Notes under the pieces: model-generated
Told to the model about the DNA's origin: nothing
What the model saw: only the letters and a program-made list of their open reading frames with translations
Databases searched by the model: none
Sequence record: OL960581
Length of the DNA: 64,000 nucleotides
Strand: one strand, 5' to 3'
Source: Escherichia phage vB_EcoM_SA20RB
Translations under genes and position numbers: made by a program
In this document: positions 12 to 54,750 of the stretch, piece after piece
Numbering within the stretch: the first letter of the stretch is position 1
How the letters are laid out: each line of letters opens with the position of its first letter

Positions 12-2189
12 TTAGGCCGCAAGGGCCTTCATAGTTTTAGCGATTTGGGAAACTTCATCATCACTTAAAGAGTTGCGATAACCGATGAAGTCGGAAACAA
101 TACGGAATTTCTTGGTAAACTCAGCAACCATTTTATCACTGTTTTTTGAAGCATTACGTGATAATTCATCAAAAAGATTAGTTACTGTCCAGATGTCATG
201 ACCGATGGTATCTTTTCCACCGTTGAAATATATACCCTGCAATGAACTAACCATATTACCAAGGCGAGTATATTCTTCGGAAACTTCATCTACACTGAAG
301 TACTTCATCATAAAATCTAGTTCAGGATACTTAATAATTTTATCAATATATCGTTTAGCTGAACTTGAATAACCTACATACTTATCATAATCTACAGCAT
401 CAAAAGCATCTACATATAAATCACGCAGAGTTTCAAAAATACATTGGCACTGACCAAGTTCTTTTACCTTTTTCTGCAAAAGCGGACGAATAACATAAAA
501 TTCATTAATACCAATAAGATTAGCCATACGAGTCAAAATACTCGTAGATGGATGACAAAGCGATGTAGTACCATCCATAGAGAAAATATCAGAACGATGC
601 ATATATGCTACATAACCAGTAATTTCATCTGCTTCTGATGTGAGTGTAAATAGTTCCTCTTTTTCCCAGCGTCCGTCTTTAATTTCAAACTTAAATGCAG
701 TAGCAGCTTTAGGACGAGGAGCTTTACTTTTAACTGCCTTCGGAATATAACTTTTAACTAAAGCTTCAATTTCTGACAAATAATGAATGTTAACTTCATC
801 ACTTTCAAACATTGCCATAATATCAGGAAGCAAATCAATCTGCGATTCTACTTCTGGATTAATAAACAGAAGCCGCTCATTGTGATGAATATTTAAGGTG
901 TTATTAAATTCACTATCATCTAACGCGCGTGCTAATCCACGGACAATATTAACACGATTTTTAGTATTATCAATAACAATATTAATTTTTGTCGTATTAA
1001 TACCAAACAGACGATAGCTTGACGCAACGGCTGAAGTTTCATGGCTTTGCTTAATGCGTTTCAGTCGAGGGTCAAGATTTACTTCATACACAACCCCTGC
1101 ATTGCATAACTTACTGTCAGGTTCAAACATGCTCTGCATCTTTTTATATGACAGATTTTTAGTCGTGAATTTGACTGAATTGCTAATCATATAATCTCGA
1201 GCAGAATATCCCATCTTCATCAATTCACGGTATGTATGACGAGGAGATGTAGATTCTTTAAATCGTTTTACATCTTCATTAAATGCCTGCTCACTGAGCT
1301 CTTTAACACGCTCAATAATATTTTTACGAGTACGATCATCTAATGAAAGAGCTTCGCGTGATGGAGCAATATCAAGTGAACCCATTGGAAACTTAATGTA
1401 ATTCACTTCATTGCGGATGCTTAACCAGTTACGATCTCTAATAACACCTTCGATAGGATAAACAATGCCGCCATAGATAGCATACAATCCACCGCGATCT
1501 GGCCAGTATCTTTCTGGATTTACACCGTAATAGTCATCAAAATCCGGAAAATAATCAATTTCGCGGTCAAGACCATTAATGATAGCCAAATCTTTGAATG
1601 GTCGCATGATATAAGAAACTTCATAAGCAAAGTTTCTAAAGTCTTTTTCTTCAACTGGAACTACGATTTCAATACCAGTTTTATCATCTGGACCCATTTC
1701 TTTTACGAATGTAGGTTTAATCTGCGGACCATCACCATCCATGTAAGCTACATAACCACGAATTTCACCTTTATGATATGAAGTAATACTAAATGTATCA
1801 GTATAACTAAACGGAGATTTAGAACCTAAACCAAATCCACCAATGAAATCGTTAGATTCAGCCTTAGATGAACTAAAGTATGAATTATACAACCCAGGAG
1901 AATTATCATCACCCTGAATATCAAAATCGCTCATACCTGGACCAAAATCTCGGCAAACAAATCGCGGATCTAATCGTCCTGGAACTTGAATGATAAATTT
2001 TTCAGGATTTCCATTAAGAGCATGGGCATCAATCATGTTGGTAATCAATTCACGAACCACTGCGCGAATCTTGTTTGTATACAAATCAGATGACAGAATT
2101 TTAAATACTTTAGGATTTGCTGCGATGCTAAATGCCTTTGATTTAGAACCATTACCAAGAATTGTTTCTTTTTCAGTGGTGATAATCAT
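12..2189 (-). CDS. rIIA: rIIA protein (725 aa)
   Basis: 725-aa ORF, ATG start at 2187-2189; size and position at left genome end match T-even rIIA. Confidence 0.85.
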
Positions 2190-2199
2190 AATTTCCTCA

Positions 2200-2403
2200 T
2201 TAATTCATATTGCGTTTAATAACTTCAGCAACTTCTAGTAGTTCATCTTTAGTTGCAGTATCGGATTGAATTTTATCTCTAATATCCTTAAAGCGGTTTT
2301 TAAACTCTTCGGCTTCTCCCATATCGAAAAAGCGTTGAATGATTCTATATTCTCGATGAACTGCTTTATCAAAAAGTTCTAAATTTACTCTATATGATTT
2401 CAT
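2200..2403 (-). CDS. small hypothetical protein (67 aa), T4 rIIA.1 position
   Basis: ATG start; immediately downstream of rIIA-upstream early promoter. Confidence 0.55.
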
Positions 2404-2428
2404 TTCAATATCCTCATTTGCCCAATTA

Positions 2429-2458
2429 ATTATACCACATCCTTGTGGTAAAGTAAAC
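2429..2458 (-). promoter_or_regulatory. T4-type early promoter (GTTTAC -35, TGnTATAAT -10)
   Basis: minus strand reads GTTTAC-17/18nt-TGGTATAAT; plus-strand attata 2429-2434, gtaaac 2454-2459. Confidence 0.6.
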
Positions 2459-4275
2459 TATTGGCTCATCCATTCTTTACGAAGGTCAGCATTATCTCCC
2501 ATGAGCATTTCAAAAAGCTCCTTCCAATTCTCAGGAAGTTTAACAACATCATATACTGGATTTTGAATCATCTCACGATACTCAGATTTTTCCAAAGAGC
2601 CAAGTCCCTTAATATAACGGATGCTATGTTTAGGTAGAGCATCTTTAGCACTCTCATATTCAGCGACTGTATAAAACCATTCTTGTTTTTTACCGACCTG
2701 AGCGATGATTACAGGAGTTTTGACAAAGCGAATTCTTCCTTGTTCAAACAGTTCTGGCCAATTACTGAAAAATCCGAGCAGAGAAGGATAAATGCTTCCT
2801 AGACCATCATGGTCAGCATCGGTCATAATAGCAATATTATGATAATTCAAGTTTTCAGCTTTTTCACCAAGAACTAATCCAGTGATTGCGCAAATATCAA
2901 ACAGTTCTTTATTTTTAAGCATATCAGCATATGACATACCCCAACTGTTGAGAACTTTACCACGCAATGGATAACCGCCATGAAGTTCTTTATCACGAAC
3001 ATCAATAAGATATCCGATAGCAGAATCACCCTCAGTCAAGAAAAGAGTCGTGTCAGCATCTTTACCACAAAGATTCGCTTTAATATGTTTATGAACCTTA
3101 GCTTTAGAAGCCTTTTTAGCTGCTTTAGTTTCTGCTGCTTTTTCTGCCGCCAATTTACGAGCCAAGGCAGCTTCAATAATTGGCATCAAAATAGCTTCAT
3201 TATTTAGAATAGCGCGTGAAATCTTTTTAGCATCAAGTTGAATATGACTACGGATTTCACCAAATGGAGAAGTCAAACGCTCTTTAGTTTGAGAATCAAA
3301 TCGCATGTTTTTCATATCACGAACAAACATAACGATAGTCAAACATTCTTTAACACGTGCTTTAGTTACATCAATTTTGAACTTACGTTTGATTTGTGGA
3401 ATAAGGTCTTCACAAATATCATCCATAACACAGTCAATGTGATGGCCACCATTCTTAGTGTGAATGTTATTCACATAAGTTAATTGGCGAAATCCATCCG
3501 GTGAACGACCAACCGCAATAGAACAATTTTCTTGTTCTTGAACAATAGCATGTTCATCATACTGTCGTGCATATTTCTTAAAATTACCCTGAACCTTTTT
3601 ACCATTAAAGGTAAATTGAATATCAGGATAAACAACAGCAAGTGTCTGGAGACGATCTAGTGTAATGTCAAGATAAACTTGGGACAGCTCATTAGTTTCA
3701 AATGACATAAAATCTGGAATGAAAGTAACACGAGTTCCTTTCCATTTTCCAGGAATAGTTTCCCAGGATTTATTTTCCATGCCATTTGAACAACGAACTA
3801 CAATATTATTTTGACCATCACCAGTTTCACCAACAAACATCACAGAAAAAATGTTAGTTAAACTAGAACCAACACCATTCATACCACCGGTGACACGTTC
3901 TTTATCATCACCGAAGTTACCACCTGCTTTTGGAATAGTCCAAGCAGCAACTGGACCAGGAATTTCTTCACCGGTAGGTGTTTTAACCATCGCTTGTGGA
4001 ATACCGCGACCGTTATCTTCAACTGTTACCTGATTATTTTTAATGGTAACATTAATTTTATTCGCGAATTTAAACTTAGTACGAATACCTTCATCTACTG
4101 AGTTATCGATAATTTCATCAATAAGCTTAACAAGACCAGGTACATACTGAACACTTTCCCATTTACCAAACAGAAAGCGCTCATGCATTTCATTAGCAGA
4201 AGAACCAATGTACATGCCGCTACGCTTTTTGATATGTTCAATATCGCTCAGAATTTTAATTTCATTCTTAATCAT
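2458..4275 (-). CDS. 39: DNA topoisomerase II large (ATPase) subunit, uninterrupted gp39+gp60 equivalent (605 aa)
   Basis: GyrB-like N-terminus; C-terminus matches T4 gp60 tail (..KLPENWKELFEMLMGDNADLRKEWMSQ); ATG at 4273-4275 with GAGGA SD (track start is GTG one codon upstream). Confidence 0.85.
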   Translation of the reverse strand: MIKNEIKILSDIEHIKKRSGMYIGSSANEMHERFLFGKWESVQYVPGLVKLIDEIIDNSVDEGIRTKFKFANKINVTIKNNQVTVEDNGRGIPQAMVKTPTGEEIPGPVAAWTIPKAGGNFGDDKERVTGGMNGVGSSLTNIFSVMFVGETGDGQNNIVVRCSNGMENKSWETIPGKWKGTRVTFIPDFMSFETNELSQVYLDITLDRLQTLAVVYPDIQFTFNGKKVQGNFKKYARQYDEHAIVQEQENCSIAVGRSPDGFRQLTYVNNIHTKNGGHHIDCVMDDICEDLIPQIKRKFKIDVTKARVKECLTIVMFVRDMKNMRFDSQTKERLTSPFGEIRSHIQLDAKKISRAILNNEAILMPIIEAALARKLAAEKAAETKAAKKASKAKVHKHIKANLCGKDADTTLFLTEGDSAIGYLIDVRDKELHGGYPLRGKVLNSWGMSYADMLKNKELFDICAITGLVLGEKAENLNYHNIAIMTDADHDGLGSIYPSLLGFFSNWPELFEQGRIRFVKTPVIIAQVGKKQEWFYTVAEYESAKDALPKHSIRYIKGLGSLEKSEYREMIQNPVYDVVKLPENWKELFEMLMGDNADLRKEWMSQ

Positions 4276-4327
4276 CACTTATCCTCGTTTGGTTTCGGGA
4301 ATATTATACTCCAATAATCATAAAGCT

Positions 4328-4346
4328 AAAGGCCCGAAGGCCTTTT
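4328..4346 (-). other. UUCG-tetraloop stem-loop (RNA stability/terminator-like)
   Basis: aaaggcc-cgaa-ggccttt palindrome; minus RNA loop UUCG; between 39.1-like gene and gene 39. Confidence 0.45.
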
Positions 4347-4605
4347 ATTTAAAACGAATAGTCGAATCCTTGAAGAATAGACCAGAACATACTGTTCCTT
4401 CTACTTTCTGCCCAGTAGGTCCAATAGCACGAAATCCAGTATGTTGGAAATCATTTTCAGAGCAACCGAACCAATTATATCCAGTGATTTCAATATTAGT
4501 AAAACCACTTGAAGACAAAACTTTGGTTGCATTATCAGCATCAGTACATCCTATTAAAGACACTGCTAATACTAATGCTGCAATAGAACGATTAATATAT
4601 TTCAT
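4345..4605 (-). CDS. putative lipoprotein (86 aa)
   Basis: signal peptide with LIGC lipobox; in-frame ATG at 4603-4605 (track start GTG 4614). Confidence 0.5.
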   Translation of the reverse strand: MKYINRSIAALVLAVSLIGCTDADNATKVLSSSGFTNIEITGYNWFGCSENDFQHTGFRAIGPTGQKVEGTVCSGLFFKDSTIRFK

Positions 4606-4610
4606 AATTT

Positions 4611-4982
4611 TCACTTAAATTTAATGGCTTGAAGAAGACTAATAACTCTCAAGCGGCTTCTTTCATCTTTAACTGTAAAGGAAAGAGGGTCACCAGATTT
4701 CATAGTGATAGTGCATCCAAAATCAAAATTTTCGGGAACTTCTTCGAAGAAGTCAAATTCTTCAGCATAAATTAGAACATTACTCTGCGTACTGTGAAGA
4801 ATTTTTCCGTCATTTCCAGATGCTGTACTAATCATCGTAACATTATGACCTTTCATATCTTCAACGATAAATTCGCTTGTAGATATTACAGCATTAATAG
4901 AACCATTCCTATAAATAGCAGACATTAGATATTTCTTTTCTTCGCCTTCGCGAATACGATATTTCTTACCGATTTTAAACAT
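4611..4982 (-). CDS. hypothetical protein (about 123 aa)
   Basis: ORF; in-frame ATG at 4980-4982 (track start GTG 4988). Confidence 0.45.
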   Translation of the reverse strand: MFKIGKKYRIREGEEKKYLMSAIYRNGSINAVISTSEFIVEDMKGHNVTMISTASGNDGKILHSTQSNVLIYAEEFDFFEEVPENFDFGCTITMKSGDPLSFTVKDERSRLRVISLLQAIKFK

Positions 4983-4984
4983 AA

Positions 4985-5161
4985 TCACCCTTTAAGTAAG
5001 TCGTAAAATCCACCATTCACATGCTTAGGAGCGGAAACTAACCGAATAGCAATCCGATGACAATCAGGACATACATCAGTATCCCTTTCAGAAATTTTCT
5101 TGATTTTTTCGTATTCTTTTGCGCAGTCTTTGGATTGACATTTATAATCATAAAGAGGCAT
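4985..5161 (-). CDS. small zinc-ribbon protein (58 aa), not in ORF track
   Basis: hand-translated MPLYDYKCQSKDCAKEYEKIKKISERDTDVCPDCHRIAIRLVSAPKHVNGGFYDLLKG; CxxC..CxxC; AAGGAA SD; start 3 nt after upstream stop. Confidence 0.5.
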   Translation of the reverse strand: MPLYDYKCQSKDCAKEYEKIKKISERDTDVCPDCHRIAIRLVSAPKHVNGGFYDLLKG

Positions 5162-5163
5162 AA

Positions 5164-5583
5164 TTATTCCTTAAAGTGAGCTTTCAACATCTGATACAAT
5201 GACCATGCCTGTTCATTATTTTCAATAATAACTTTCATTACCGGGAATTCTGTGAAATCTTCTATTTGTTCTTGCTCTTCCTGCTCTTGCTCTTCGGCTG
5301 CCTGATATGGATTTTCCACTTCATCAAAGAACCCAGCTTCACTTTTTGAAAGCCAAATAAAGTCTTCATCCAAAACATCTTTACCAGAAGATAGTACTAA
5401 ATTTCCAGTAGATGACAAAATTTTAATAGGACGCCCAAGAGCATCCACATCTAAAATTTTAAAAGGATACATACCTAAACGTCGCGCATAGATTCCGTTA
5501 TCAGTATGGTCTTTAATAAAATTTTCTTGAGCTTGTTTATTTTTAAATTGATACCATTTATTAACTTCAAATTTAATAGCCAT
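5164..5583 (-). CDS. hypothetical protein (139 aa), T4 goF/comC-alpha position
   Basis: ATG start; acidic [10 protein letters not shown] stretch; assignment by position and size only. Confidence 0.45.
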
Positions 5584-6534: not shown

Positions 6535-7077
6535 TTAATTCAAAATAGCTACCACTGCACTACGAGGTACTACACTAAAATCACCTGCATGAACAACGTT
6601 CAGAAGTTCAACACCATCTTCAATCCACTGGTCTGTTACCCAACCACAGACCGAAATAAATGGGGTCTTGATAACTACAGCACGAGTTAGAAGGTCAGTA
6701 GGATCGCATTCTTGGAAGAGGATAAGCTCTGCTTCAAAGACTATAGTTTTAATTACTTCATCATTATCTAAGCGTTGTGCTCGAATCACGTAAGCTTTAT
6801 TCTTATCATGCCAATTACTTTTTGAAAAACTTTTAACCACAAACTCGCCTTCACCCAAAACACTGGTCAATGCTTTATAACCCAAACTTAGTTCAGTAGT
6901 TTTAATTTCAGTTTCAACCAGTTTGTAGGTTTTGTCAATTTCGATGGTCCGAGCAGTCATAAAAGTTTCCTTAATTTCTAATGGTTTAACAAGAGTGCCG
7001 TATATGCTTGCTATATCCATATCAAATATTTTATCTATAGGATTTGGGGTGTATTCAGGATTATAATTAAATTTCAT
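6535..7077 (-). CDS. MotB paralog (180 aa)
   Basis: C-terminal CGWVTDQWIEDGVELLNVVHAG parallels CGYITDQWVEDGVKLYNVVFLG in 5970..6458. Confidence 0.5.
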   Translation of the reverse strand: MKFNYNPEYTPNPIDKIFDMDIASIYGTLVKPLEIKETFMTARTIEIDKTYKLVETEIKTTELSLGYKALTSVLGEGEFVVKSFSKSNWHDKNKAYVIRAQRLDNDEVIKTIVFEAELILFQECDPTDLLTRAVVIKTPFISVCGWVTDQWIEDGVELLNVVHAGDFSVVPRSAVVAILN

Positions 7078-15038: not shown

Positions 15039-15212
15039 TCAATCTTCAATGAAAACTTGTGCCAGGAATTCATGTTCATCTTTAATTTGTTTATATAAAG
15101 CCATTACAGCATTTATATTAGAGCTATCTACTTTAAGTTGATAAGCATACCACTCGTGTAAATTAATTAAAGCTTTTTGACGTCTAATAAATTCTTCTTT
15201 GGATATTTTCAT
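15039..15212 (-). CDS. small hypothetical protein (57 aa), not in ORF track
   Basis: ATGA overlap with upstream gene stop at 15209-15212; hand-translated MKISKEEFIRRQKALINLHEWYAYQLKVDSSNINAVMALYKQIKDEHEFLAQVFIED. Confidence 0.4.
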   Translation of the reverse strand: MKISKEEFIRRQKALINLHEWYAYQLKVDSSNINAVMALYKQIKDEHEFLAQVFIED

Positions 15213-15403
15213 TTTGAATGCTCTATAATTAATTTTAAAGCTTCTTCACTGACAAAAATTTCGTCATGACCTTCTGTAACTTCAACCATATGAAGCTGAT
15301 TAGTTAAGAGCTCACATACGAGCTCCTTGTTATAATCTTTAAATAGCTGGTCAATACGCTTCTTGCGGGCTTTCTTAAGCTGGCGCTTATTTAAACGAGC
15401 CAT
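15209..15403 (-). CDS. hypothetical protein (64 aa)
   Basis: ATG start; abuts gp56 stop. Confidence 0.45.
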   Translation of the reverse strand: MARLNKRQLKKARKKRIDQLFKDYNKELVCELLTNQLHMVEVTEGHDEIFVSEEALKLIIEHSK

Positions 15404-20323: not shown

Positions 20324-21479
20324 TTAACTGATCTAGGTCAGTTTCTAAATCAGCTGCTGATTTACTTTTACTTTCTGGAGATTTAAATTTTTCAACCTTT
20401 GAGTTAATCAATTCATCAACTTCAGCTTCAACAATTTCATTACTATCAATAGCACCTAACTGATAAGCATGTTTAATAGCATCTCGGAATGGTTGATGCT
20501 TAAATAAAGGACCCCAGAATGTAGTGCAGTTGGTATCTTTTGCACGCCAAGATTTTTCTTCGCGAATCATCTCGCCGGTTTCTTCGTCAAGAAATTCACG
20601 AGCATACCAGCCATTTTTAGGTTTTACCACAAATCCTAATTCAAGAGCCATATCTAACAATCCAGAATAAGGATCGATACCACCGTCAAATTTAACATCA
20701 ATAAAGAATTTACTTTTTTCTTTAACGGTACGAGATTTTTCTACATTTAGAACAAATTGATACCCCTGAAGATCAGAACCATCTTTAATCTGGCGCTTAC
20801 CGATAATGAATACAGTATCAGCCGAATACATTACGCCTGTACCACCTGTCATCACGGTTTTACTAAACATTTCAATTGTTTCAATTGTATGGTTAACCGC
20901 AACGCACGGAATGTTTTTAATACTAAAATAAGGAGTAACAATACGGAATAATGACTTCAGTGATTTAGCACGAGTCATATCTGCCACAGATTTTTCATTC
21001 AAGGCATCTTCCGTTTCTTTCTTAGAAGCCATATTACCGATTGAGTCGATGAATACAATAACCTTTTCACCACGCTCAATAGCTTCAAGCTGGTTCACCA
21101 TATCAATTTTCAGTTGTTCAACTGACTGAATTGGTGTATGAATTACTCGTTCCGGGTCAACTCCCATGGATCGCAAATAAGCAGGAGTAATACCAAATTC
21201 GCTATCATAGAATAGACAAACCGCGTCAGGATATTTGTTCAAATACGCCGCAACCATAGTCAAAGACATATTTGATTTAAAGTGTTTAGAAGGACCTGCA
21301 AAAATGGTTAAACCAGACTGCATACCACCATCAATCGCACCAGAAATAGCAATATTAAGCATTGGGATTTTTGTACGGATTACATCCTTTTCATTAAAGA
21401 ATTTAGATGTAGTCAGTTCAGCAGTCATTTTAGAAGTGGAAGCTTTAATCAAACGGGATTTTAAATCTGCAATAGACAT
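20298..21479 (-). CDS. uvsX: UvsX RecA-like recombinase (393 aa)
   Basis: ATG start; N-terminus SIADLKSRLIKASTSK..; RecA fold motifs; size near T4 UvsX (391). Confidence 0.85.
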   Translation of the reverse strand: MSIADLKSRLIKASTSKMTAELTTSKFFNEKDVIRTKIPMLNIAISGAIDGGMQSGLTIFAGPSKHFKSNMSLTMVAAYLNKYPDAVCLFYDSEFGITPAYLRSMGVDPERVIHTPIQSVEQLKIDMVNQLEAIERGEKVIVFIDSIGNMASKKETEDALNEKSVADMTRAKSLKSLFRIVTPYFSIKNIPCVAVNHTIETIEMFSKTVMTGGTGVMYSADTVFIIGKRQIKDGSDLQGYQFVLNVEKSRTVKEKSKFFIDVKFDGGIDPYSGLLDMALELGFVVKPKNGWYAREFLDEETGEMIREEKSWRAKDTNCTTFWGPLFKHQPFRDAIKHAYQLGAIDSNEIVEAEVDELINSKVEKFKSPESKSKSAADLETDLDQLSDMEEFNE

Positions 21480-21532
21480 TCATTTTTTCCATAGGCATCA
21501 TTATATTTTCCTCACTGGTTAAAGATAGAGTA

Positions 21533-21556
21533 ATTATAACACAATAAATTTAGGCA
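21533..21556 (-). promoter_or_regulatory. possible middle promoter (MotA-box-like TGCCTA + TATAAT) upstream of uvsX
   Basis: minus strand aaTGCCTAaa-12nt-TATAAT; MotA box is one mismatch from TGCTTA. Confidence 0.3.
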
Positions 21557-22399
21557 TTAATCAACTGCTATCGGATGAATAGCATTAAACTTATGAAACG
21601 CTTCTGATTTTTCTTTGCGCGAAACACACATGCGAAGAACCTTTAATGGCTCGTCTTCTTCACCCAACGATTTTCTCTTTTCAATATTCGATGTTTTCCA
21701 ACGAGCTTGCTCTGGAAACTCTCTATTGATTTGCTCAAGAGCTCTATTATGTTTTGAATTACTACGAATTGAACTACATCCGCCAGGAGCTTGCGCTTTT
21801 CCGGATACAACCAGATATTTGAACAAGGCCAAATGCGGATAACCTTGATTAATTAAATTGAGAAATGCATACATATCTTCGCATAAATCAATTTTTCCAT
21901 ACCCAATTTGTTCTGTTGTAAGTTTCCCGAGGTCATACCAAGTATTCGTGAATCCATATGAATTTTCACGATAATTACCCCAAGATGAAGTAATTTTAAA
22001 AATAGGCAGACGAGCATGACCATGATAATACCCGCAATCCATGGCATCTTCAACGTATTGAATCAATTCATAGAACTGTTCACGAGTTAATTGATTAATT
22101 TTATCTACGCAGCGACGATCATCTTTCTTTCGCATTGAACTCATACGAATAGTAGTATCATCATCAATCATCCAAATTCGTTGACCTGCATACATATCAG
22201 TAATTGCTTTACGAGTACCAGCAATTCCATTAACATCATCAGGAATAGTTATAATTTTAGCTCTAGACCCGTAAGCGTCATAATAAGCTTTTTCTTCGTG
22301 TTCACGTACTACAATATGAGGTTCATAATCAGTCGGAAACATATCAAGGGCAGAAACTGCCCCGACACGCTGATAACTTGGAATTACGAATTGAATCAT
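21557..22399 (-). CDS. putative glycosyltransferase at the T4 beta-gt locus (280 aa), possibly T2/T6-type beta-glucosyl-HMC alpha-glucosyltransferase
   Basis: start at ATG 22397-22399 (ATGA overlap with gene 42 stop); DxD-like MIDDDT motif; 280 aa rather than T4 b-gt 351 aa. Confidence 0.5.
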   Translation of the reverse strand: MIQFVIPSYQRVGAVSALDMFPTDYEPHIVVREHEEKAYYDAYGSRAKIITIPDDVNGIAGTRKAITDMYAGQRIWMIDDDTTIRMSSMRKKDDRRCVDKINQLTREQFYELIQYVEDAMDCGYYHGHARLPIFKITSSWGNYRENSYGFTNTWYDLGKLTTEQIGYGKIDLCEDMYAFLNLINQGYPHLALFKYLVVSGKAQAPGGCSSIRSNSKHNRALEQINREFPEQARWKTSNIEKRKSLGEEDEPLKVLRMCVSRKEKSEAFHKFNAIHPIAVD

Positions 22400-23136
22400 T
22401 TCCACTCACCTTTATAATCTTTTTTCACAATATGAGTTTCGCCAGTATTCCACCAATGATCAACCAAGTAAAAATGACGAAAATATACATGAAGACTTCC
22501 AACATTCCATATAATAGAACCTGCTTTATACTGACGAGTTGAATCGCCTGCATTCAAGTCAGATACTAATTTATCTAGTACGTATTTTTGCCATGCATAA
22601 TCATTACGGAATCCGAAGACCACGTCATTTGAACGCATGCTTACTACTGCATTGACTTTCTTATCACGAATCAGGTACTGCACTGTATTAGTACACATGA
22701 AATCTGACATACCATCTTTATTGTAGTCAAACTGCATGGATGGACGAGTATAAATCATGATACCACGCCGAGAATCAGGATTTTGACCAAGTTCAGCTAA
22801 ACACATATCATACTGGGCATAGTTATCTTCTGACCAGATGGCCCAACCATAATTCGAGTTAATTTCGCCTTTAGAAGATGCTACCTGCTGCCAAATCTTT
22901 GGTGTTTCACCCGGAATATCTTTAACAAACAAACTTTTAGATTTATACCATTCAAGTTCACGTTGAATGTATTCATCATTAAGAGCGCCAAAAATAAACG
23001 GTTCATCTGCTACAAATGATGCACCAATAATTTCAATAGTTTTAACACCAGTTTTATCAACTACGAAATCTTTTTCTTTTAATGCAAGCCCCAAATGAAG
23101 ACGGATTTCTTCAACTGTCATAGAGTCACTAATCAT
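22396..23136 (-). CDS. 42: dCMP hydroxymethylase gp42 (246 aa)
   Basis: 246 aa, thymidylate-synthase-like; ATG start. Confidence 0.85.
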   Translation of the reverse strand: MISDSMTVEEIRLHLGLALKEKDFVVDKTGVKTIEIIGASFVADEPFIFGALNDEYIQRELEWYKSKSLFVKDIPGETPKIWQQVASSKGEINSNYGWAIWSEDNYAQYDMCLAELGQNPDSRRGIMIYTRPSMQFDYNKDGMSDFMCTNTVQYLIRDKKVNAVVSMRSNDVVFGFRNDYAWQKYVLDKLVSDLNAGDSTRQYKAGSIIWNVGSLHVYFRHFYLVDHWWNTGETHIVKKDYKGEWK

Positions 23137-34410: not shown

Positions 34411-35610
34411 TTTTGTAATAATGTCAAACTGTTCTTTAAAGCAGAAGCTTGAATCTTGATGCTGATACAAAAATTCATAAGCTTTTTCGCGTTCACGGTC
34501 ATAAAGAGCTCGGTCAGATGACAGTTCTTTAATACGTTCAAATGTTGATTCCATGTCATTTTCATCAAACCAAACGATACCGCTATCATGAGAAATTAAC
34601 GGAGTATTATCAACACGGAATTTTAAATTTTCGCCAGTAGATTTCCAAAATACTGGAATTGTTCCACATGCACCAAGCTCGAGATGAGTATATTCTAAAG
34701 AACGTTGTAGATATTTTTTGTCCAACTTACTCAGCTGATAACCAAATCCGGATTTACTCATGCGCTCAAGCATTTCGCTATTTACATAACGGTCAAGAAT
34801 TTGCGTTGGCAAATTAGGAGCAATTTTAATTTGGTCTACTTGATGAAGACGATAATACTCGTATGGAATTCCTTTTTCTTTAATAGGAATGAACGCAGGA
34901 GAACGTTCCAGACCTTCCATAATAGTACTTAGCCCAGCAGGTTTAAGATGTTTTTCGTGAAAATCAAACATCTGATAAAAACCTTTCCATGTAGTCGTAC
35001 GACCAATCCAACGGTTGACATTCATGTTAATTTCAGAAACATCTTTCCAGTAGGTTGATCGAACCTTCGCAATATCCATAGGAGGCTGAAAGTTGTATAC
35101 AGTCGGTGCTTCTTCAATATCATCAAACAGAGAAACTGTTTCTGGATACCATTCTTTCATCAAAACTTTATTAAAATCACCATTATCAGAATGACTAAAA
35201 ATAACATCAGCTCGACGAACAGTTTCTTCTAATCCCAAATTTCGGCGCAAAGAAAGAGAAGAATGGTCATGTTGATAAACTACAACACGAACTGAAGGTT
35301 TAATGTTATCAATAATTTTTTTATAGTTATTAATAGTGTCTTCTTCGACTGAAGTAGCAGGAACTGAATTGATAATTAGAATATCACAATCATTTACCAG
35401 CTTAAGTGTTTTATCGTATTCTTTTGCCAATAAAACCGGAATTGAAAATGATTTATAATCATGCGCGCAATTACGAGTAAATGATTTATCTTTAGCATAA
35501 ACCAAAGTTACTTCATGACCATTTTTAATAAACCAATCACGCTGCTCGAGAGAAAATTTAGTTACGCCGCAACCTTCAAGACCTCGAGCCATAAAAATAC
35601 ATACTTTCAT
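34408..35610 (-). CDS. a-gt: alpha-glucosyltransferase (400 aa)
   Basis: 400 aa as T4 a-gt; position between 47 and 55. Confidence 0.75.
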   Translation of the reverse strand: MKVCIFMARGLEGCGVTKFSLEQRDWFIKNGHEVTLVYAKDKSFTRNCAHDYKSFSIPVLLAKEYDKTLKLVNDCDILIINSVPATSVEEDTINNYKKIIDNIKPSVRVVVYQHDHSSLSLRRNLGLEETVRRADVIFSHSDNGDFNKVLMKEWYPETVSLFDDIEEAPTVYNFQPPMDIAKVRSTYWKDVSEINMNVNRWIGRTTTWKGFYQMFDFHEKHLKPAGLSTIMEGLERSPAFIPIKEKGIPYEYYRLHQVDQIKIAPNLPTQILDRYVNSEMLERMSKSGFGYQLSKLDKKYLQRSLEYTHLELGACGTIPVFWKSTGENLKFRVDNTPLISHDSGIVWFDENDMESTFERIKELSSDRALYDREREKAYEFLYQHQDSSFCFKEQFDIITK

Positions 35611-35660
35611 TTAATATCCTCATTGTTTTGGTTTATTTTACCAAAAATTTATAAAGCAAT

Positions 35661-39650: not shown

Positions 39651-40121
39651 TTAATCATGTTTCCACACCCCATCGGTATTTGACCAAAGTCGCTGATTAT
39701 CTGATCCTCGCCACAGCTTTTTGGTAGGAAGATTTTTCTCATACTTCCCATCAATAATAACATCAACATATTTAAGCATTTCTAGTTGTTTAATATCTTC
39801 AAATTTATATCCTGTCCACAACCAAATGCTTTTATTGGAATAAAGATTTTTTACTGTTTGAACCACAGAGTGAATAACATCTCGGTTATCAGGATAGAGA
39901 GGGTCTCCTCCAGTTATAGTTAATCCTTCTATATAATCATTATTCAAACATTCAATTAATTGTTCTAGTGTTTCACCAGTGAATGGAACACCATTTCTAG
40001 CATTCCATGTTGATTTATTATAACACCCTTCGCATTTATGCAAACAACCTGTAACGAAAAGAACTGTCCTGCATCCAGGACCATTAACAAAGCAGCATGG
40101 GTATATTCTGTCATAATTCAT
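39651..40121 (-). CDS. nrdG: anaerobic ribonucleotide reductase activating protein NrdG (radical SAM, 156 aa)
   Basis: Cys cluster CLHKCEGC; 156 aa; ATG start. Confidence 0.8.
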   Translation of the reverse strand: MNYDRIYPCCFVNGPGCRTVLFVTGCLHKCEGCYNKSTWNARNGVPFTGETLEQLIECLNNDYIEGLTITGGDPLYPDNRDVIHSVVQTVKNLYSNKSIWLWTGYKFEDIKQLEMLKYVDVIIDGKYEKNLPTKKLWRGSDNQRLWSNTDGVWKHD

Positions 40122-40950
40122 TTATATATTTCCAATTATAGCCTTCAACACTTTTACGTTCGCCATTTAAACATTTTAAAATATTTCCTTTGCTAGAAAT
40201 ATTAAAATATTTTGCTGCGTCTGGTATATAATTAAATGTTTTTAAAAGAACACCATCTTTATATGCGCCAAATAAATTAAGAGTATATTTTTCTCGAAGA
40301 CGCTGATGTTTCCTTTTCATAACCTCAGGATTTGCATACGCCAACCTCAATGAATTTCTATGTTTTTCTTTTACTTCAGGTTTTTGCATTGCTAACTTAG
40401 TTAGCCTGGAAATTTTATTTCTAACTTCGTCAGTTTTCATTGCATTTGACAAATTTAATAAAGTTTTATTTCTAACTTCAGGTTTTTGCATTGCTAACTT
40501 AGTTAGTTCTCTATGTCTTTTTCTAAAATCGTCATCCTTCCATATATTTTTCGATAATTTTGACATAGAGCGGTGAAATAATTCCTTTTCACTGGAATAC
40601 AATTTAAAAATTTCATCCAATTCATCCGCATTAAATCTATCGGTATTCGAGTTTATCATTCTATGAAAGGCATAACACATTTTACTATTGCTTGTTTTAG
40701 CTAAATAGTAATGAGCTAACGCATGGTCATAATATGACAAATTAACAATATTCCATTTATCTGTTTTATATTCAGGAAATATAGATTTGGGAAGCACGTG
40801 ATGTGCTTCCGTTTTTCCTTTTATTTTAGGATTATTATAATTTTTTGTTATCAAATCAACATATGACAATAGTAAATCATTATTTTCTTCAAATATTAAA
40901 GCTAATTTATCATTCACAAAATCGCAAGGATAAAATCTATCGTAATTCAT
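40111..40950 (-). CDS. HNH homing endonuclease-like protein (mob-type, 279 aa)
   Basis: HNH motif AHHVLPKS..YYDHALAHYY; repeated KLAMQKPEV modules; ATGA overlap with nrdD stop. Confidence 0.6.
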   Translation of the reverse strand: MNYDRFYPCDFVNDKLALIFEENNDLLLSYVDLITKNYNNPKIKGKTEAHHVLPKSIFPEYKTDKWNIVNLSYYDHALAHYYLAKTSNSKMCYAFHRMINSNTDRFNADELDEIFKLYSSEKELFHRSMSKLSKNIWKDDDFRKRHRELTKLAMQKPEVRNKTLLNLSNAMKTDEVRNKISRLTKLAMQKPEVKEKHRNSLRLAYANPEVMKRKHQRLREKYTLNLFGAYKDGVLLKTFNYIPDAAKYFNISSKGNILKCLNGERKSVEGYNWKYINEL

Positions 40951-42238
40951 TGGTGTTTAACCCTATGCATGATTTCTTTATTTTTTCCGAGATTAAATCC
41001 GCGTTCATTCGGATTTCCCAAATAACCACAAGTTCTTCTTATTGTGTTCATCTTTTTAGGATCAGTTTCTCCACAAATAGAACAAACAAATCCGTTTTCA
41101 GTAGGAGTCATTTCATGTGTACTTCCACATGTAAAACATTTATCTACTGGCATGTTAACACCAAAATAATCTAAATGTTGTGCAGCATAATCCCATACAG
41201 CCTCAAGACCTTTTAAGTTATTTTTCATATCAGGAAGTTCAACATAAGAAATGTGACCACCTGTCGCAATGAAATGATATGGGGCTTCGCGAGAAATCTT
41301 TTCAAATGGAGTGATATTTTCTTCTACTGAAACATGGAAACTATTAGTGTACCAGCCTTTATCAGTAACATCTTTTACACTTCCATATTTTTCAGTATCA
41401 AGTTTACAGAAGCGATAACAAAGGTTTTCAGCAGGTGTAGAATACAAGCTAAAAGCAAAACCAGTTCTTTCAGTCCACTGCTTAAGACGAGCATTCATTT
41501 TAGTTAAAATTTCCTGTCCAATATCACGACCGACAAGAATATTCAATTCGTGAATACCAATGTATCCTAGGGACACTGAACTTCTACCGTTTTTAAATAA
41601 CTCAATTATGTCGTCATCAGGTTTAAGACGAACCCCGAATGCACCTTCTTGGTAAAGAATAGGAGCAACAGTAGCTTTAACTCCTTTTAAGGAACTAATT
41701 CTACACATCAATGCTTCAAAACATAAATCCATTCTCTCATTGAACAATTCGGCAAATTTCTGTTCATTGAACTGTGTTCCAATATAAGAATCTAATGCGA
41801 TACGAGGAAGATTCAGTGTTACAACACCAAGATTATTACGTCCATCAAGAATTTCATTACCAGTCGAATCTTTCCATACGCTCAAGAAACTACGGCAACC
41901 CATTGGAGAAACAGGAACAGATGAACCAGTGATAGCTCTATTGTTCTTAGCTGAAATAATATCAGGATACATCCTTTTGCTTGCACACTCTAGAGCAAGC
42001 TGCTTAATATCATAGTTCGGATCGTCTTTGTAAAGATTAACACCTTCTTCAACGAACATGACAAGTTTAGGGAAAATAGGAGTTATCCCATCACGACCAA
42101 GACCTTTGATACGATTTTTCAGAATTGCTTTCTGAATCATTCGTTCAGTCCAGTCAGTTCCCGTACCAAATGTAATTGTTACAAAAGGCGTTTGACCATT
42201 AGAGCTGAAAAGTGTATTTACTTCATCATTATATTCAG
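40947..42238 (-). CDS. nrdD: anaerobic ribonucleoside-triphosphate reductase NrdD, exon 2
   Basis: C-terminal glycyl-radical motif RTCGYLG; in-frame with exon 1 after removing 1033-nt intron. Confidence 0.7.
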
Positions 42239-43271
42239 CATGAGTCGCAAATTCATGCCCGTTTATATGAAACAACAAAATTTGGATAGTCCATAGATAT
42301 GCAACGTTCTTTTATAGTGCTAGGATGAAAATTTAGCGCTTTAGCTGCTTCTATATAAGACGTATACTTAATACCGTCAACAACCACATATTCAGGAACT
42401 TTATGAATAGTAGTCTTAATACTCAAAACAAGAGGATGAGTTTCGACTTCACTTTCAGTGCAATTTAAATATTCCGCTGCTTTTTTAAAACTTCTAAAAG
42501 TTTTATTTTTAAGCTTTATCGATACTTGTTTTTTACTTTTTCGACTATTGATATTATTTTGCACATGTTCCTTAGATCTTCCGTTTTTAGCATAATATTC
42601 AGCTACAGAAGATTTTATATTGTTTTTATGAGATTCGGATAACACTTTACCCTTATGAGCATCTCTTAATTTTTGAATATGTTCTTCAGTATCCGGATGC
42701 TTATAAAACTTTTTACCGCCTATGGATTTATTTAAACATTTTTTGCTATAAAAATATTTACGTATGACCTCTTCTTCATGTTTTAATGCATCTTTATAAC
42801 TATCAAATGTTTTTAAAATTATCCATTTAGTAGGTGTATCAGTTTTTAAGCGTTCATTTATATACTTAGATGACGTTGTGTAAGTTTTCCAGTTTGTGGG
42901 CTTGTTTTTAATTGTTCTAAATTTTTTATAACCGATATAAATGTCGCCATTAGAAAACTTAACTAAGTATGTAAATGCGTCTTTATCTTTTATTTTAGTA
43001 CAACGTCTTTTTATCCATTTCATTGTTTCACCTCGTATTCATAAGATAATCTTATTTATACAAGATGACTGCTGCATGTCGCCATGCAGATTAGACTATA
43101 TCTTCATCTTTCGATGCCGGCCGTTTCGAATAGCATTAGCTTCTATTCTACACCGTTACATTCATCACGGTTAGTCGTTAGGCATTTAGTTCAAAAGAAC
43201 ATTTAGCACGGGATTGTCTACTAGAGAGGTTCCCCGTTTAGACCGGTTTTACATGAGCCTGAATTAAATTA
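42239..43271 (-). mobile_element. group I self-splicing intron in nrdD (1033 nt) carrying a GIY-YIG endonuclease ORF
   Basis: conserved core ..CTAAACGGGGAACCTCTCTAGTAGACAATCCCGTGCTAAAT.. on minus strand; junction GAGU|..G|CUGAA restores frame; length equals recalled T4 nrdD intron (1033). Confidence 0.6.
42253..43023 (-). CDS. intron-encoded GIY-YIG homing endonuclease (I-TevII-like, 256 aa)
   Basis: FTYLVKFSNGDIYIGYKKF GIY-YIG motif; lies wholly within nrdD intron. Confidence 0.7.
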   Translation of the reverse strand: MKWIKRRCTKIKDKDAFTYLVKFSNGDIYIGYKKFRTIKNKPTNWKTYTTSSKYINERLKTDTPTKWIILKTFDSYKDALKHEEEVIRKYFYSKKCLNKSIGGKKFYKHPDTEEHIQKLRDAHKGKVLSESHKNNIKSSVAEYYAKNGRSKEHVQNNINSRKSKKQVSIKLKNKTFRSFKKAAEYLNCTESEVETHPLVLSIKTTIHKVPEYVVVDGIKYTSYIEAAKALNFHPSTIKERCISMDYPNFVVSYKRA

Positions 43272-43809
43272 ACTCATACGCCTGGAATGCATCGTATACG
43301 TCTTTTTCTGTTTTAGACTGGGCATAATTCAACGCATCAGCGATTTGCCATTTTTCTGCATCCTCAATATGTTTTGCATAGGTGCGTTTAACATAAGGAG
43401 AAAGTACTTTATCTACATTAGCAAAAGTCGTTCCGCCGTACTGATGTGAAGCAACCTGTGCAGTAATTTGTGCCATAATTGCAGTAGCAACGCCAATTGA
43501 TTTAGGAGTTTCAATCTGTGCATTGCCGAGCTTAAATCCGTTCTCAAGCATTCCTTTTAAATCTACTAAACAGCAATTAGTAAATGGAAGAGCAGGGGAA
43601 TAATCAATATCGTGGAAATGGATAATTCCGCTTTCATGCGCTTTCATAATAAAAGACGGGACCATATTTTTGGCAATGTGTTTAGACACAATACCAGCCA
43701 TAAGGTCCCGTTGAGTTGGAAAAACACGAGAATCTTTATTAGCATTCTCGTTCAAAAGGTCTTTATTAGTTTTATGAATCAATCCTTCAATTTCTTTTTC
43801 AATTGTCAT
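43272..43809 (-). CDS. nrdD: anaerobic ribonucleoside-triphosphate reductase NrdD, exon 1
   Basis: ATG 43807-43809 (ATGA overlap with gene 49 stop); reading frame hits TAA immediately inside intron. Confidence 0.7.
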
Positions 43810-52772: not shown

Positions 52773-53783
52773 TCATTTATAATAACTTCGGTGGTTTTCA
52801 AGATAAACCCTCTCAAGGAAGTCATCCCAGAAACCCATGTCTACTTTTTGTTGCATACCGTTCTTAGAAGCTTCAATAGATGCTGCTTCTACTTGATCGA
52901 CCACATCTTCCAAAAACTCTTGAACAGTTTTAAATGGATGTTTACCAAGCTTCACGTCGAGAATAAATGGAGCGTCTTGGAGTGGATAGACTAAGTCACC
53001 AGTTTTGTAAATTTCCAATAGTTGGAGTCCACCACGACAAGCATGACTCAGAGCTTTCCAGTCAATACCCTCATTCGCTTCAGCCTTACGAGCACGTTCA
53101 CCATATTCAGCATCAAGTTTATTCAAAGACTGCTTAAGCTCAATAAGAGAAAGAGTTGTCTGATATTTACGACCCAACACAGTGTAGAACGTTTGTGGGC
53201 CTGTTTTCTCATGATTATGGAATACCCATTCACAGAATTCGTTCTCTGGAAGACGATGCTTAATATCTTCAACTTTAGTTCGACGCTGCTTAATGGAACC
53301 GTCTTCTTGGTAATCAACCCATTGCTCAGGGATTTGATTAACTACTTTCAATACATCACGCAATGCGGCCAAACGAGAACCCTTGACACCATATTTAGAA
53401 GCTTGCTTGCGGACATATCCTAAATAAGATTTCATGTTAGTTGTATAAAAACGAGAACGATTGTCTTGAATAAACTTCCACACATCAGGTAAATCAGATT
53501 TAACCACTAGTTCAGGTGGAGTGTGAAGCATATCTAATGCTACGGTTTCACCATCTGCTGCTAATTTAAAGAAATATTTAAGACTGTATAGTTCATGGTC
53601 AATATCATCTTTAGTGTTTTTAGATGATGTGTTGTTGGTATTTTTACTCATATGCTCTTTAACATTTCCGATAAGAATATCACGAGCAGGAGGAACAAAG
53701 ATTTCTTTAAAATCTACATCAGATTCTGGGGTAGAAGTTCCATAAAGATGACTACCAAAATAACTTTTCATTACTGTTTTCAT
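52773..53783 (-). CDS. putative nucleotidyltransferase (Pol-beta superfamily fold, 336 aa)
   Basis: N-terminal GSHLYGTSTPESDVDF matches minimal NTase motif GS-x(9-13)-D-h-D/E-h. Confidence 0.5.
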   Translation of the reverse strand: MKTVMKSYFGSHLYGTSTPESDVDFKEIFVPPARDILIGNVKEHMSKNTNNTSSKNTKDDIDHELYSLKYFFKLAADGETVALDMLHTPPELVVKSDLPDVWKFIQDNRSRFYTTNMKSYLGYVRKQASKYGVKGSRLAALRDVLKVVNQIPEQWVDYQEDGSIKQRRTKVEDIKHRLPENEFCEWVFHNHEKTGPQTFYTVLGRKYQTTLSLIELKQSLNKLDAEYGERARKAEANEGIDWKALSHACRGGLQLLEIYKTGDLVYPLQDAPFILDVKLGKHPFKTVQEFLEDVVDQVEAASIEASKNGMQQKVDMGFWDDFLERVYLENHRSYYK

Positions 53784-54226
53784 TTAACATCCTTAAATTC
53801 TATCATAGGGCAGATTTTAGATTTACTAGCTTTAAGGTATTCAACGATTACACTATTAGGATGTTCAATACCGTTTTCTTCGTCTTGTTGACGCTTCCAC
53901 GCTCTATCATACCTGACTCCTTCCCATAAACCTGAAATCTTAGCTACAATATATGCTATACCTACTGCAATAACGACAATCGTAGCAAATATCAGTACAC
54001 CAAATACGGTTCCGCCTGCGTGTAGAAGCCAGAATCCTGTAACACCAAATTGACTTAAAATAGCTTGTCCTACCACCCAACTACCTAATAGCCCCGATGT
54101 GCAAATAACACCGATAACTAAGAACGTCCACGCCATTTTCCAGAAATATTTACACAAAGAATTCGGACGCTGCCAGTAAAAGAAATCATGCATACGAACG
54201 TGCCAAGAGTTTTCATTAATAATCAT
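53780..54226 (-). CDS. integral membrane protein (148 aa)
   Basis: three or more hydrophobic helices. Confidence 0.5.
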   Translation of the reverse strand: MIINENSWHVRMHDFFYWQRPNSLCKYFWKMAWTFLVIGVICTSGLLGSWVVGQAILSQFGVTGFWLLHAGGTVFGVLIFATIVVIAVGIAYIVAKISGLWEGVRYDRAWKRQQDEENGIEHPNSVIVEYLKASKSKICPMIEFKDVK

Positions 54227-54228
54227 AA

Positions 54229-54750
54229 TTATCCTTTCATTGAAGGTGTAACAGTTGTTAAATACTTAATCATAGCTTCAGCTTCTGATTTTGATAATGA
54301 AATTTCTCCATTGTTTTGACGAATAGAAATAAAATCCGGATGACGGTCACCACCAGCTTTTAAAATACACATATAAGTATCAGTTTCATCTTCAATATCT
54401 GAAATGATTGAAGCAGTTCCGCATGAATGCGGTTTTTGATAAATCAATGCAGCTTTTCTTCCACCGTTTGACTGTTCATAAACTTTTAACACATCAAACA
54501 AATCACTTCTTTTATCAATAGCTAAGATGTTGTTTTCATCTTCAATGTTAAATCCTTCGGATACTTCATAAAGTGTCACCCATAAATCACCTATATCGAT
54601 AGTAGCATTTCCTTTTCCACGACTTTCAAGAGTATGACAAATTTTCTTGATTTCGTCATAACTCATTTTAATAATATCATCTCCTTGAATAAGGAAGATG
54701 TCATTTTTAAATTCAACACGAATTAAACCGCTTTCACTTGAAATAAACAT
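54229..54750 (-). CDS. hypothetical protein (173 aa), paralog of 54757..55314
   Basis: C-terminus SKSEAEAMIKYLTTVTPSMKG parallels TKDEAIALKTYLDSVIPTMISK. Confidence 0.5.
   Translation of the reverse strand: MFISSESGLIRVEFKNDIFLIQGDDIIKMSYDEIKKICHTLESRGKGNATIDIGDLWVTLYEVSEGFNIEDENNILAIDKRSDLFDVLKVYEQSNGGRKAALIYQKPHSCGTASIISDIEDETDTYMCILKAGGDRHPDFISIRQNNGEISLSKSEAEAMIKYLTTVTPSMKG

Follow-up and report, generated by a model that had tools for sequence, protein, structure and literature searches.

A T2/T6-type unsplit gene 39, lacking the MobA insertion and translational bypass of T4, in a Tequatrovirus genome

The undivided gene 39 of phages T2 and T6 was already known in the 1980s-90s, and hundreds of genomes annotate it as 'gp60plus39' or 'DNA topoisomerase II large subunit'. 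Topoisomerase II of T2 and T6 consists of gp39 and gp52 as its two subunits; those of T6 form an active relaxing enzyme, and the T6 protein has been purified and its structure solved (PMC11461880). In T4, the same enzyme is encoded, in the same genomic context as the gene 39 described here, by genes 39, mobA/60.1 and 60. The roughly 70 residues inserted in T4 protrude outside the Toprim domain and have little effect on activity (PMC11461880). The MobA element measures 1097-1106 nt and inserts after residues 466-473 and just downstream of D490/G491; in the HY01 example it replaces a 64-nt segment, and the identity of the cassette-borne homologous region to the parental sequence is only 67-81% (bioRxiv 10.1101/2022.08.31.505936). 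Phages of the T4 clade carry 9 more cassette nucleotides past the gap, and each cassette-bearing clade is reported to have close relatives that lack the cassette (bioRxiv 10.1101/2022.08.31.505936).

The whole stretch of DNA that was analysed, of 64,000 nucleotides (hereafter the window), is from a Tequatrovirus. It starts at the conventional T4 coordinate origin, where the minus strand carries rIIA (12..2189) and rIIA.1 (2200..2403), with coordinates as in T4 (AF158101). Against the phage collection, the best matches reached approximately 95-96% identity across the first 25 kb and 97.7% over 2200..4700, and none was near-identical overall. The window is mosaic relative to T4. A beta-glucosyl-HMC-alpha-glucosyltransferase gene, which is a T2/T6-type trait, is found in place of T4 segA and beta-gt; segF, segA, mobB and mobD are absent from the window, a GIY-YIG homing-endonuclease gene lies between gene 47 and alpha-gt, and a divergent HNH gene occupies the mobC locus. 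The nrdD gene is interrupted by an ORF 56% identical to I-TevII; Rfam searches gave no match in the whole window at the gathering threshold, nor in the nrdD region at E<=0.01, and the presumed nrdD intron is thus without covariance-model support as a group I intron.

Gene 39 was delimited from the ORF listing and the raw sequence, and its features are collected in Table 1. The gene is a single ORF of 605 codons plus a TAG stop (2460..2458), with its ATG at 4275..4273, the same start as that annotated in T4, T2, T6 and RB14. The ORF listing also gives 2458..4278, which encodes 606 aa if a GTG start is used and 605 aa if the ATG is used. The GTG at 4278 was rejected as a start codon, since only 3 nt separate it from the Shine-Dalgarno sequence, too short a distance, and since all the relatives and the PDB chain begin at the ATG. 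At a G+C content of 34%, stops should occur every ~13 codons, and the chance of 605 sense codons in a row is approximately 3e-22, which excludes that such an ORF arose by chance. In a scan for promoter and terminator consensus sequences around gene 39, counts were not above shuffled expectation. An intact ORF of 605 codons at 2458..4275 had been claimed in the original prediction. These coordinates run exactly from ATG to stop, with only the strand (minus) left unnamed, and the ORF proved to be collinear with the 1818-nt genes of T2, T6 and RB14, no indel being present, residues 1-605 of the PDB chain 8ylu_C being matched in one stretch. Both peptides quoted at that time are present in the ORF, whose product reads MTDADHDGLGSIYPSL at residues 484-499 and terminates in ..KLPENWKELFEMLMGDNADLRKEWMSQ (..DLRKEWMSQ).

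Table 1. Position of gene 39, of its domains and motifs, and of the segments aligned with T4, in window coordinates
Feature	Position	Strand	Basis and remarks
Full-length gene 39 (DNA topoisomerase II large subunit, GyrB/ParE-like)	2458..4275	-	ORF; collinearity with T2, T6 and RB14; PDB 8ylu_C
Shine-Dalgarno sequence GAGGA	4282..4286	-	6 nt upstream of the ATG at 4275; read off the sequence
GHKL ATPase domain, residues 47-149	3829..4137	-	Pfam HATPase_c, 1.9e-09, 38.4 bits (cutoff 26.4)
Transducer domain, residues 250-384	3124..3528	-	Pfam DNA_gyraseB, 1.5e-13, 51.1 bits (cutoff 27)
Toprim catalytic glutamate motif EGDSA, residues 415-419	3019..3033	-	Motif search; located in gp39 in T4
Toprim metal-binding motif DADHDG, residues 486-491	2803..2820	-	Located in gp60 in T4, where the last Gly is the take-off codon
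Toprim-associated C-terminal domain, residues 519-604	2464..2721	-	Pfam TOPRIM_C, 4.1e-07, 30.7 bits (cutoff 29)
Gene 39 up to codon 473	4340..2858		T4 5393..3911, 95.6% identity; blastn against T4 2401..5400
Empty site, 64 native nt, most of codons 474-494	2794..2857	-	blastn breakpoints 2858 = T4 3911 and 2793 = T4 2793
Segment matching the cassette copy of the replaced segment	2849..2804		T4 2899..2854, 76% identity; blastn
Position of the T4 50-nt gap, between codons 491 (GGT) and 492 (CTA)	2802..2803	-	Continuous here; codon-by-codon comparison
Gene 60 after the gap	2793..2401		T4 2793..2401, 97.5% identity; blastn

The product displays the elements of a complete type IIA large subunit on one chain. 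The ATPase domain contains the Bergerat-fold motifs, N-box and G-box included (EIIDNSVDE at residues 54-62, DNGRGIP at 87-93 and GGMNGVGSS at 130-138), and the QTK loop of the transducer domain corresponds to residues 329-331. The EGDSA and DADHDG motifs are borne by the same polypeptide and followed by the C-terminal tail domain, which makes the Toprim complete. No match to the Pfam Toprim model was obtained in the gene 39 product at E<=0.001, but the alignments to the T6, ParE and TOP2 chains span this region. The region recognized by TOPRIM_C corresponds to the body of gp60 in T4, and is 100% identical to T4 gp60 residues 38-160. In the PDB search, the T6 gp39 chain (8ylu_C) aligned over its residues 1-605 with residues 1-605 of the query (E=0), and the artificial fusion of T4 gp39 and gp60 (8yo3_C) aligned in two stretches. 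The same search gave collinear matches to ParE (4juo_C) over query residues 6-603 and to human TOP2A and TOP2B over residues 10-603; cellular enzymes thus also have an uninterrupted polypeptide at the T4 split site. The GHKL, transducer and Toprim architecture is shared with bacterial ParE/GyrB and eukaryotic topoisomerase II, but the sequence relationship is distant; phage gp39 differs from the cellular type IIA enzymes in forming a separate lineage, in having gp52 as partner and in the absence of the GyrB insertions.

Comparison with unsplit relatives was performed by ungapped alignment, using the 1818-nt genes of T2 (AP018813), T6 (AP018814) and RB14 (FJ839692, annotated 'gp60plus39'). Identity to T2 was 95.7% at the nucleotide and 99.67% at the amino acid level (74 synonymous and 2 nonsynonymous codon differences), that to T6 was 96.5% and 99.83% (63 and 1), and that to RB14 was 96.6% and 99.83% (58 and 1). 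No indel separates the four genes, and the window thus carries the unsplit '60plus39' allele of the T2/T6 type. The T6 protein (PDB 8ylu and related entries) has the same length of 605 residues and the same domain order, with a single replacement (Q526H), and its gene has the same place in the genome, following rIIA and rIIA.1, in a different isolate. The T2 and RB14 proteins differ by 2 and 1 amino acids, respectively, and the small ORFs neighbouring their genes are partly different. The predicted resemblance to T2 and T6 is borne out by the records of both phages and by the description of their enzymes (PMC11461880).

An excess of 58-74 synonymous over 1-2 nonsynonymous codon differences indicates strong purifying selection on a working gene 39. 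This pattern effectively refutes the reading in which the ORF is only apparently intact, as a pseudogene or decaying copy, the functional topoisomerase being encoded elsewhere, a reading in favour of which no evidence emerged; the catalytic motifs are all present, the gene has a canonical Shine-Dalgarno sequence and start, and its product is 99.8% identical to the purified, active and structurally solved T6 protein, so that the probability of a decayed gene is practically negligible. From the same identity to the characterised T6 protein, the gene 39 product is expected to be enzymatically active. By homology with T6, it would pair with gp52, encoded outside the window, to form an A2B2 type IIA topoisomerase, to which it would contribute the ATPase gate together with the Mg2+-binding half of the cleavage site, formed by Toprim. 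Such an enzyme would relax DNA during phage replication by conventional type IIA, ATP-dependent strand passage, and its large subunit would be translated conventionally, from one start to one stop and without recoding.

Alignment with T4 leaves an empty site of 64 nt, whose counterpart in T4 (AF158101) amounts to 1117 nt. Within these 1117 nt lie the extension of gp39 at its C-terminus, the mobA pseudogene, the extension of gp60 at its N-terminus, a divergent copy of the replaced segment and the gap of 50 nt; with 64 nt against 1117 nt, there is no room for the HNH endonuclease gene mobA between the two halves of the gene. Residues 1-473 of the product correspond to residues 1-473 of T4 gp39, and residues 477-605 to residues 32-160 of T4 gp60. 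T4-specific stretches are the 43-residue tail of gp39 (FEEKEDGEW...RKNL) and, in gp60, residues 1-31 (MKFVKIDSS...SSSM). These breakpoint figures agree with the structure published for the MobA element (bioRxiv 10.1101/2022.08.31.505936).

At the position of the gap, the window reads in frame GAT GGT CTA GGA AGC (D490 G491 L492 G493 S494), whereas T4 reads GAT GGA TAG CCT TCG GGC ... TTG GA/T TAG GTT, that is, a take-off GGA, a stop and a 50-nt gap ending (slash) in the landing GGA. Following the gap position, T4 has TTA GGT TCT, the native sequence shared by the window, T2 and T6 is CTA GGA AGC, and RB14 has TTA GGA AGC. The 50-nt bypass region annotated in T4 (T4 2803..2852) has no counterpart in the window alignment, and a pattern search allowing up to 3 mismatches retrieved no copy of the gap sequence from the 64-kb window. 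In tblastn searches, intact T4T MobA had no match at the gene 39 locus and no ortholog elsewhere in the 64 kb, the best match being a 29%-identical HNH gene at another locus (40111..40950). The peptides of the gp39 C-terminal and gp60 N-terminal extensions likewise gave none at the locus, with a best E of 0.4 over the whole window. The original prediction, that neither a mobA insertion nor a 50-nt bypass is present, is thus upheld on each count: by the size of the empty site, by the empty tblastn results for MobA and the extensions at the locus, by the uninterrupted reading GAT GGT CTA GGA, and by the absence of the gap sequence from the window. Its placement of the take-off codon was also correct, gp60 Gly46 being the equivalent of G491, directly after the Toprim DxDxDG motif. 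The check it had named, an alignment with T4 genes 39, mobA and 60, revealed no 50-nt insertion, in-frame stop or mobA remnant in 2458..4275.

The ORF at 2458..4275 (minus strand) is thus almost certainly the gene 39 of a Tequatrovirus of the T2/T6 type, ordinary, functional and unsplit, conventionally translated and bearing the empty site for the MobA homing cassette; no feature of the sequence speaks against this. The unsplit state could nevertheless be derived in this lineage, if an ancestor that had acquired the cassette with its bypass lost it afterwards ('hit and run'). Loss with re-fusion is documented in a clade of Aeromonas phages (bioRxiv 10.1101/2022.08.31.505936), but the documented re-fusions retain sequences homologous to both extensions, and in the present ORF, of exactly 605 residues, neither extension could be traced; re-fusion of the Aeromonas type, keeping both extensions, is excluded by this exact collinearity over 605 residues and by tblastn. 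Secondary loss could also result from recombination, as T-even phages recombine freely, the window is itself mosaic relative to T4, and an unsplit allele swapped in for a split one would leave no scar. Against such a reversion, the 64-nt segment is native in type, 1 nt from T2, whereas its identity to the cassette copy of T4 is only 76% over the 46 nt that match best, and the 9 nt past the gap position are CTA GGA AGC and not TTA GGT TCT as in T4. A secondary reversion is accordingly considered very improbable, and a T2/T6-type gene 39 with its native empty site is retained as the explanation.

According to a secondary account, MobA from MobA-positive relatives nicks T2 within the empty-site segment and the cassette is then copied in (bioRxiv 10.1101/2022.08.31.505936). 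In the same source, cassette carriers are described as protected by the bypass insert, located approximately 20 nt downstream of the nick, and polymorphisms of the cassette copy alone as giving no protection from MobA (bioRxiv 10.1101/2022.08.31.505936). In codons 468-497, a range that takes in the entire 64-nt empty site, the window is one synonymous base apart from T2 (ACC for ACT, at codon 485); this codon is ACT in T6 as well, and ACA in both RB14 and T4. Because its target differs by this single synonymous base, the phage should be a cleavable recipient for MobA, and the near-identity of this target to that of T2 suggests that the phage would be susceptible to nicking and to cassette acquisition in a mixed infection. 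The codon 485 difference sits close to the reported nick position, whose coordinate is approximate. That the allele is not a naive MobA target, either because it was regained after recombinational loss of the cassette or because ACC at codon 485 lowers cleavage, appears very unlikely; if the codon 485 variant did lower cleavage by MobA, it would represent protection without the bypass sequence.

The frequency of the unsplit state was estimated among phage records with a 191-nt query spanning both breakpoints (window 2740..2930), at a coverage of at least 80%. The unsplit junction was found by this query in 451 records, and the T4 cassette (T4 2794..3915) is present in 43, of which 41 near full length; cassette carriers include T4 strains, RB55, RB59, HY01, HY03, vB_EcoM_112 and others. 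On these figures (451 against 41-43 records), the unsplit gene is the state of about nine tenths of the sequenced close relatives. The collinearity of cellular homologues, the foreign-looking cassette copy (76% identity), the existence of cassette-free relatives and the majority state together support the view that the unsplit gene is ancestral at the level of the gene family. The term 'ancestral' applied to this phage in the original prediction therefore holds for the family, on the grounds of ParE/TOP2 collinearity and majority state, but not necessarily for this lineage, where a gain followed by recombinational loss would leave no trace.

This unsplit arrangement has been described before and does not set the phage apart, being the usual state of Tequatrovirus genomes. 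For annotation, its value is that the genome encodes the large subunit of a two-subunit topoisomerase II (gp39 and gp52), with no recoding exception needed in gene calling. The phage is moreover a predicted recipient of the MobA/bypass homing cassette, and its gene 39 adds one more data point to the view that the T4 arrangement is a minority and recently acquired state.

Gene 39 of the T4 reference record (AF158101) was found to differ from all of its compared counterparts at two places. Codons 326-328 and 355 of this record give ..NMRLIRQTK.. and ..SRDIL.., whereas the window, T2, T6, RB14 and T4T (a resequenced T4) all have ..NMRFDSQTK.. and ..SRAIL.. at the same codons. Codons 326-328 of T4 correspond to 3300..3292 in the window, where the blastn alignment contains two compensating gaps, and the discrepant codons adjoin the catalytic QTK loop. 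The reference probably carries old sequencing errors here.

Upstream of gene 39, the small early ORFs (4345..4988 and 6535..7077, both on the minus strand) are unlike those of T4, which lacks the 123-residue ORF and carries motB.1 at the place of the 180-residue protein (Table). Stable UUCG hairpins are common in T4 intergenic regions, and a similar one precedes gene 39. It was not picked up by a consensus terminator scan around this gene.

Table. Positions in the window of features that are compared with T4
Feature	Position	Strand	Details
Hairpin	4322..4345	-	GGCC-UUCG-GGCC tetraloop, then T-rich run; between 86-residue ORF and gene 39
86-residue protein	4345..4605	-	Lipoprotein-like signal (..LIGC)
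123-residue ORF	4611..4982	-	phrog_622, RB32ORF005c-like
180-residue protein	6535..7077	-	MotB-like C-terminus
Sites of missing segF, segA, mobB, mobD	15039..15402, 21468..22413, 35602..35625, 53785..54731		
Beta-glucosyl-HMC-alpha-glucosyltransferase, 280 residues	21557..22399	-	phrog_842, 5.6e-89; Pfam TAGT
Free-standing homing-endonuclease-like gene, 207 residues	33608..34231	-	Between gene 47 and alpha-gt
Mob-type HNH homing endonuclease, 279 residues	40111..40950	-	Between nrdG and nrdD
nrdD, interrupted	40947..43809	-	As in T4
GIY-YIG ORF, 256 residues	42253..43023	-	Between the two nrdD ORFs
Internal virion protein, 157 residues	62632..63105	-	Pfam DUF7412, 5.7e-96; phrog_3155

The T4 homing endonuclease genes segF, segA, mobB and mobD are all absent from the window (tblastn, E>1). 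The segF and mobD positions are occupied by small unrelated ORFs; one of these is y05I-like (Pfam T4_y05I_N/C), and another, at 53780..54750, encodes a membrane protein. Other endonuclease genes are present. The free-standing gene corresponds to a 594-nt insertion relative to T4, where the tiny 47.1 alone separates gene 47 from alpha-gt; the product of the free-standing gene matches phrog_10820 (2.3e-93) and, weakly and below cutoff, Pfam GIY-YIG, and has the N-terminal motif YITYLTIY...FYIGST. The HNH gene lies at the position of T4 mobC, but its product shares only 27-38% identity with T4 MobA, MobB, MobC and MobD, so this intergenic slot holds a different endonuclease. In nrdD, the ORF for the N-terminal part extends to about 43264 and that for the C-terminal part begins within 42278..40947; the GIY-YIG ORF that lies between the two is only 56% identical to I-TevII. 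Rfam group I intron models gave no match in this region, even at E<=0.01, and the putative intron is thus placed solely by collinearity with T4.

Two further loci differ in gene content. The internal-protein region, a known hypervariable locus, holds denV, ipII and ipIII in T4 (1441 nt) and the 157-residue internal virion protein in the window (441 nt). Where T4 has segA and beta-gt, the window carries the beta-glucosyl-HMC-alpha-glucosyltransferase gene, which suggests that the hydroxymethylcytosine DNA of this phage receives gentiobiosyl modification of the T2/T6 type rather than modification of the T4 type.
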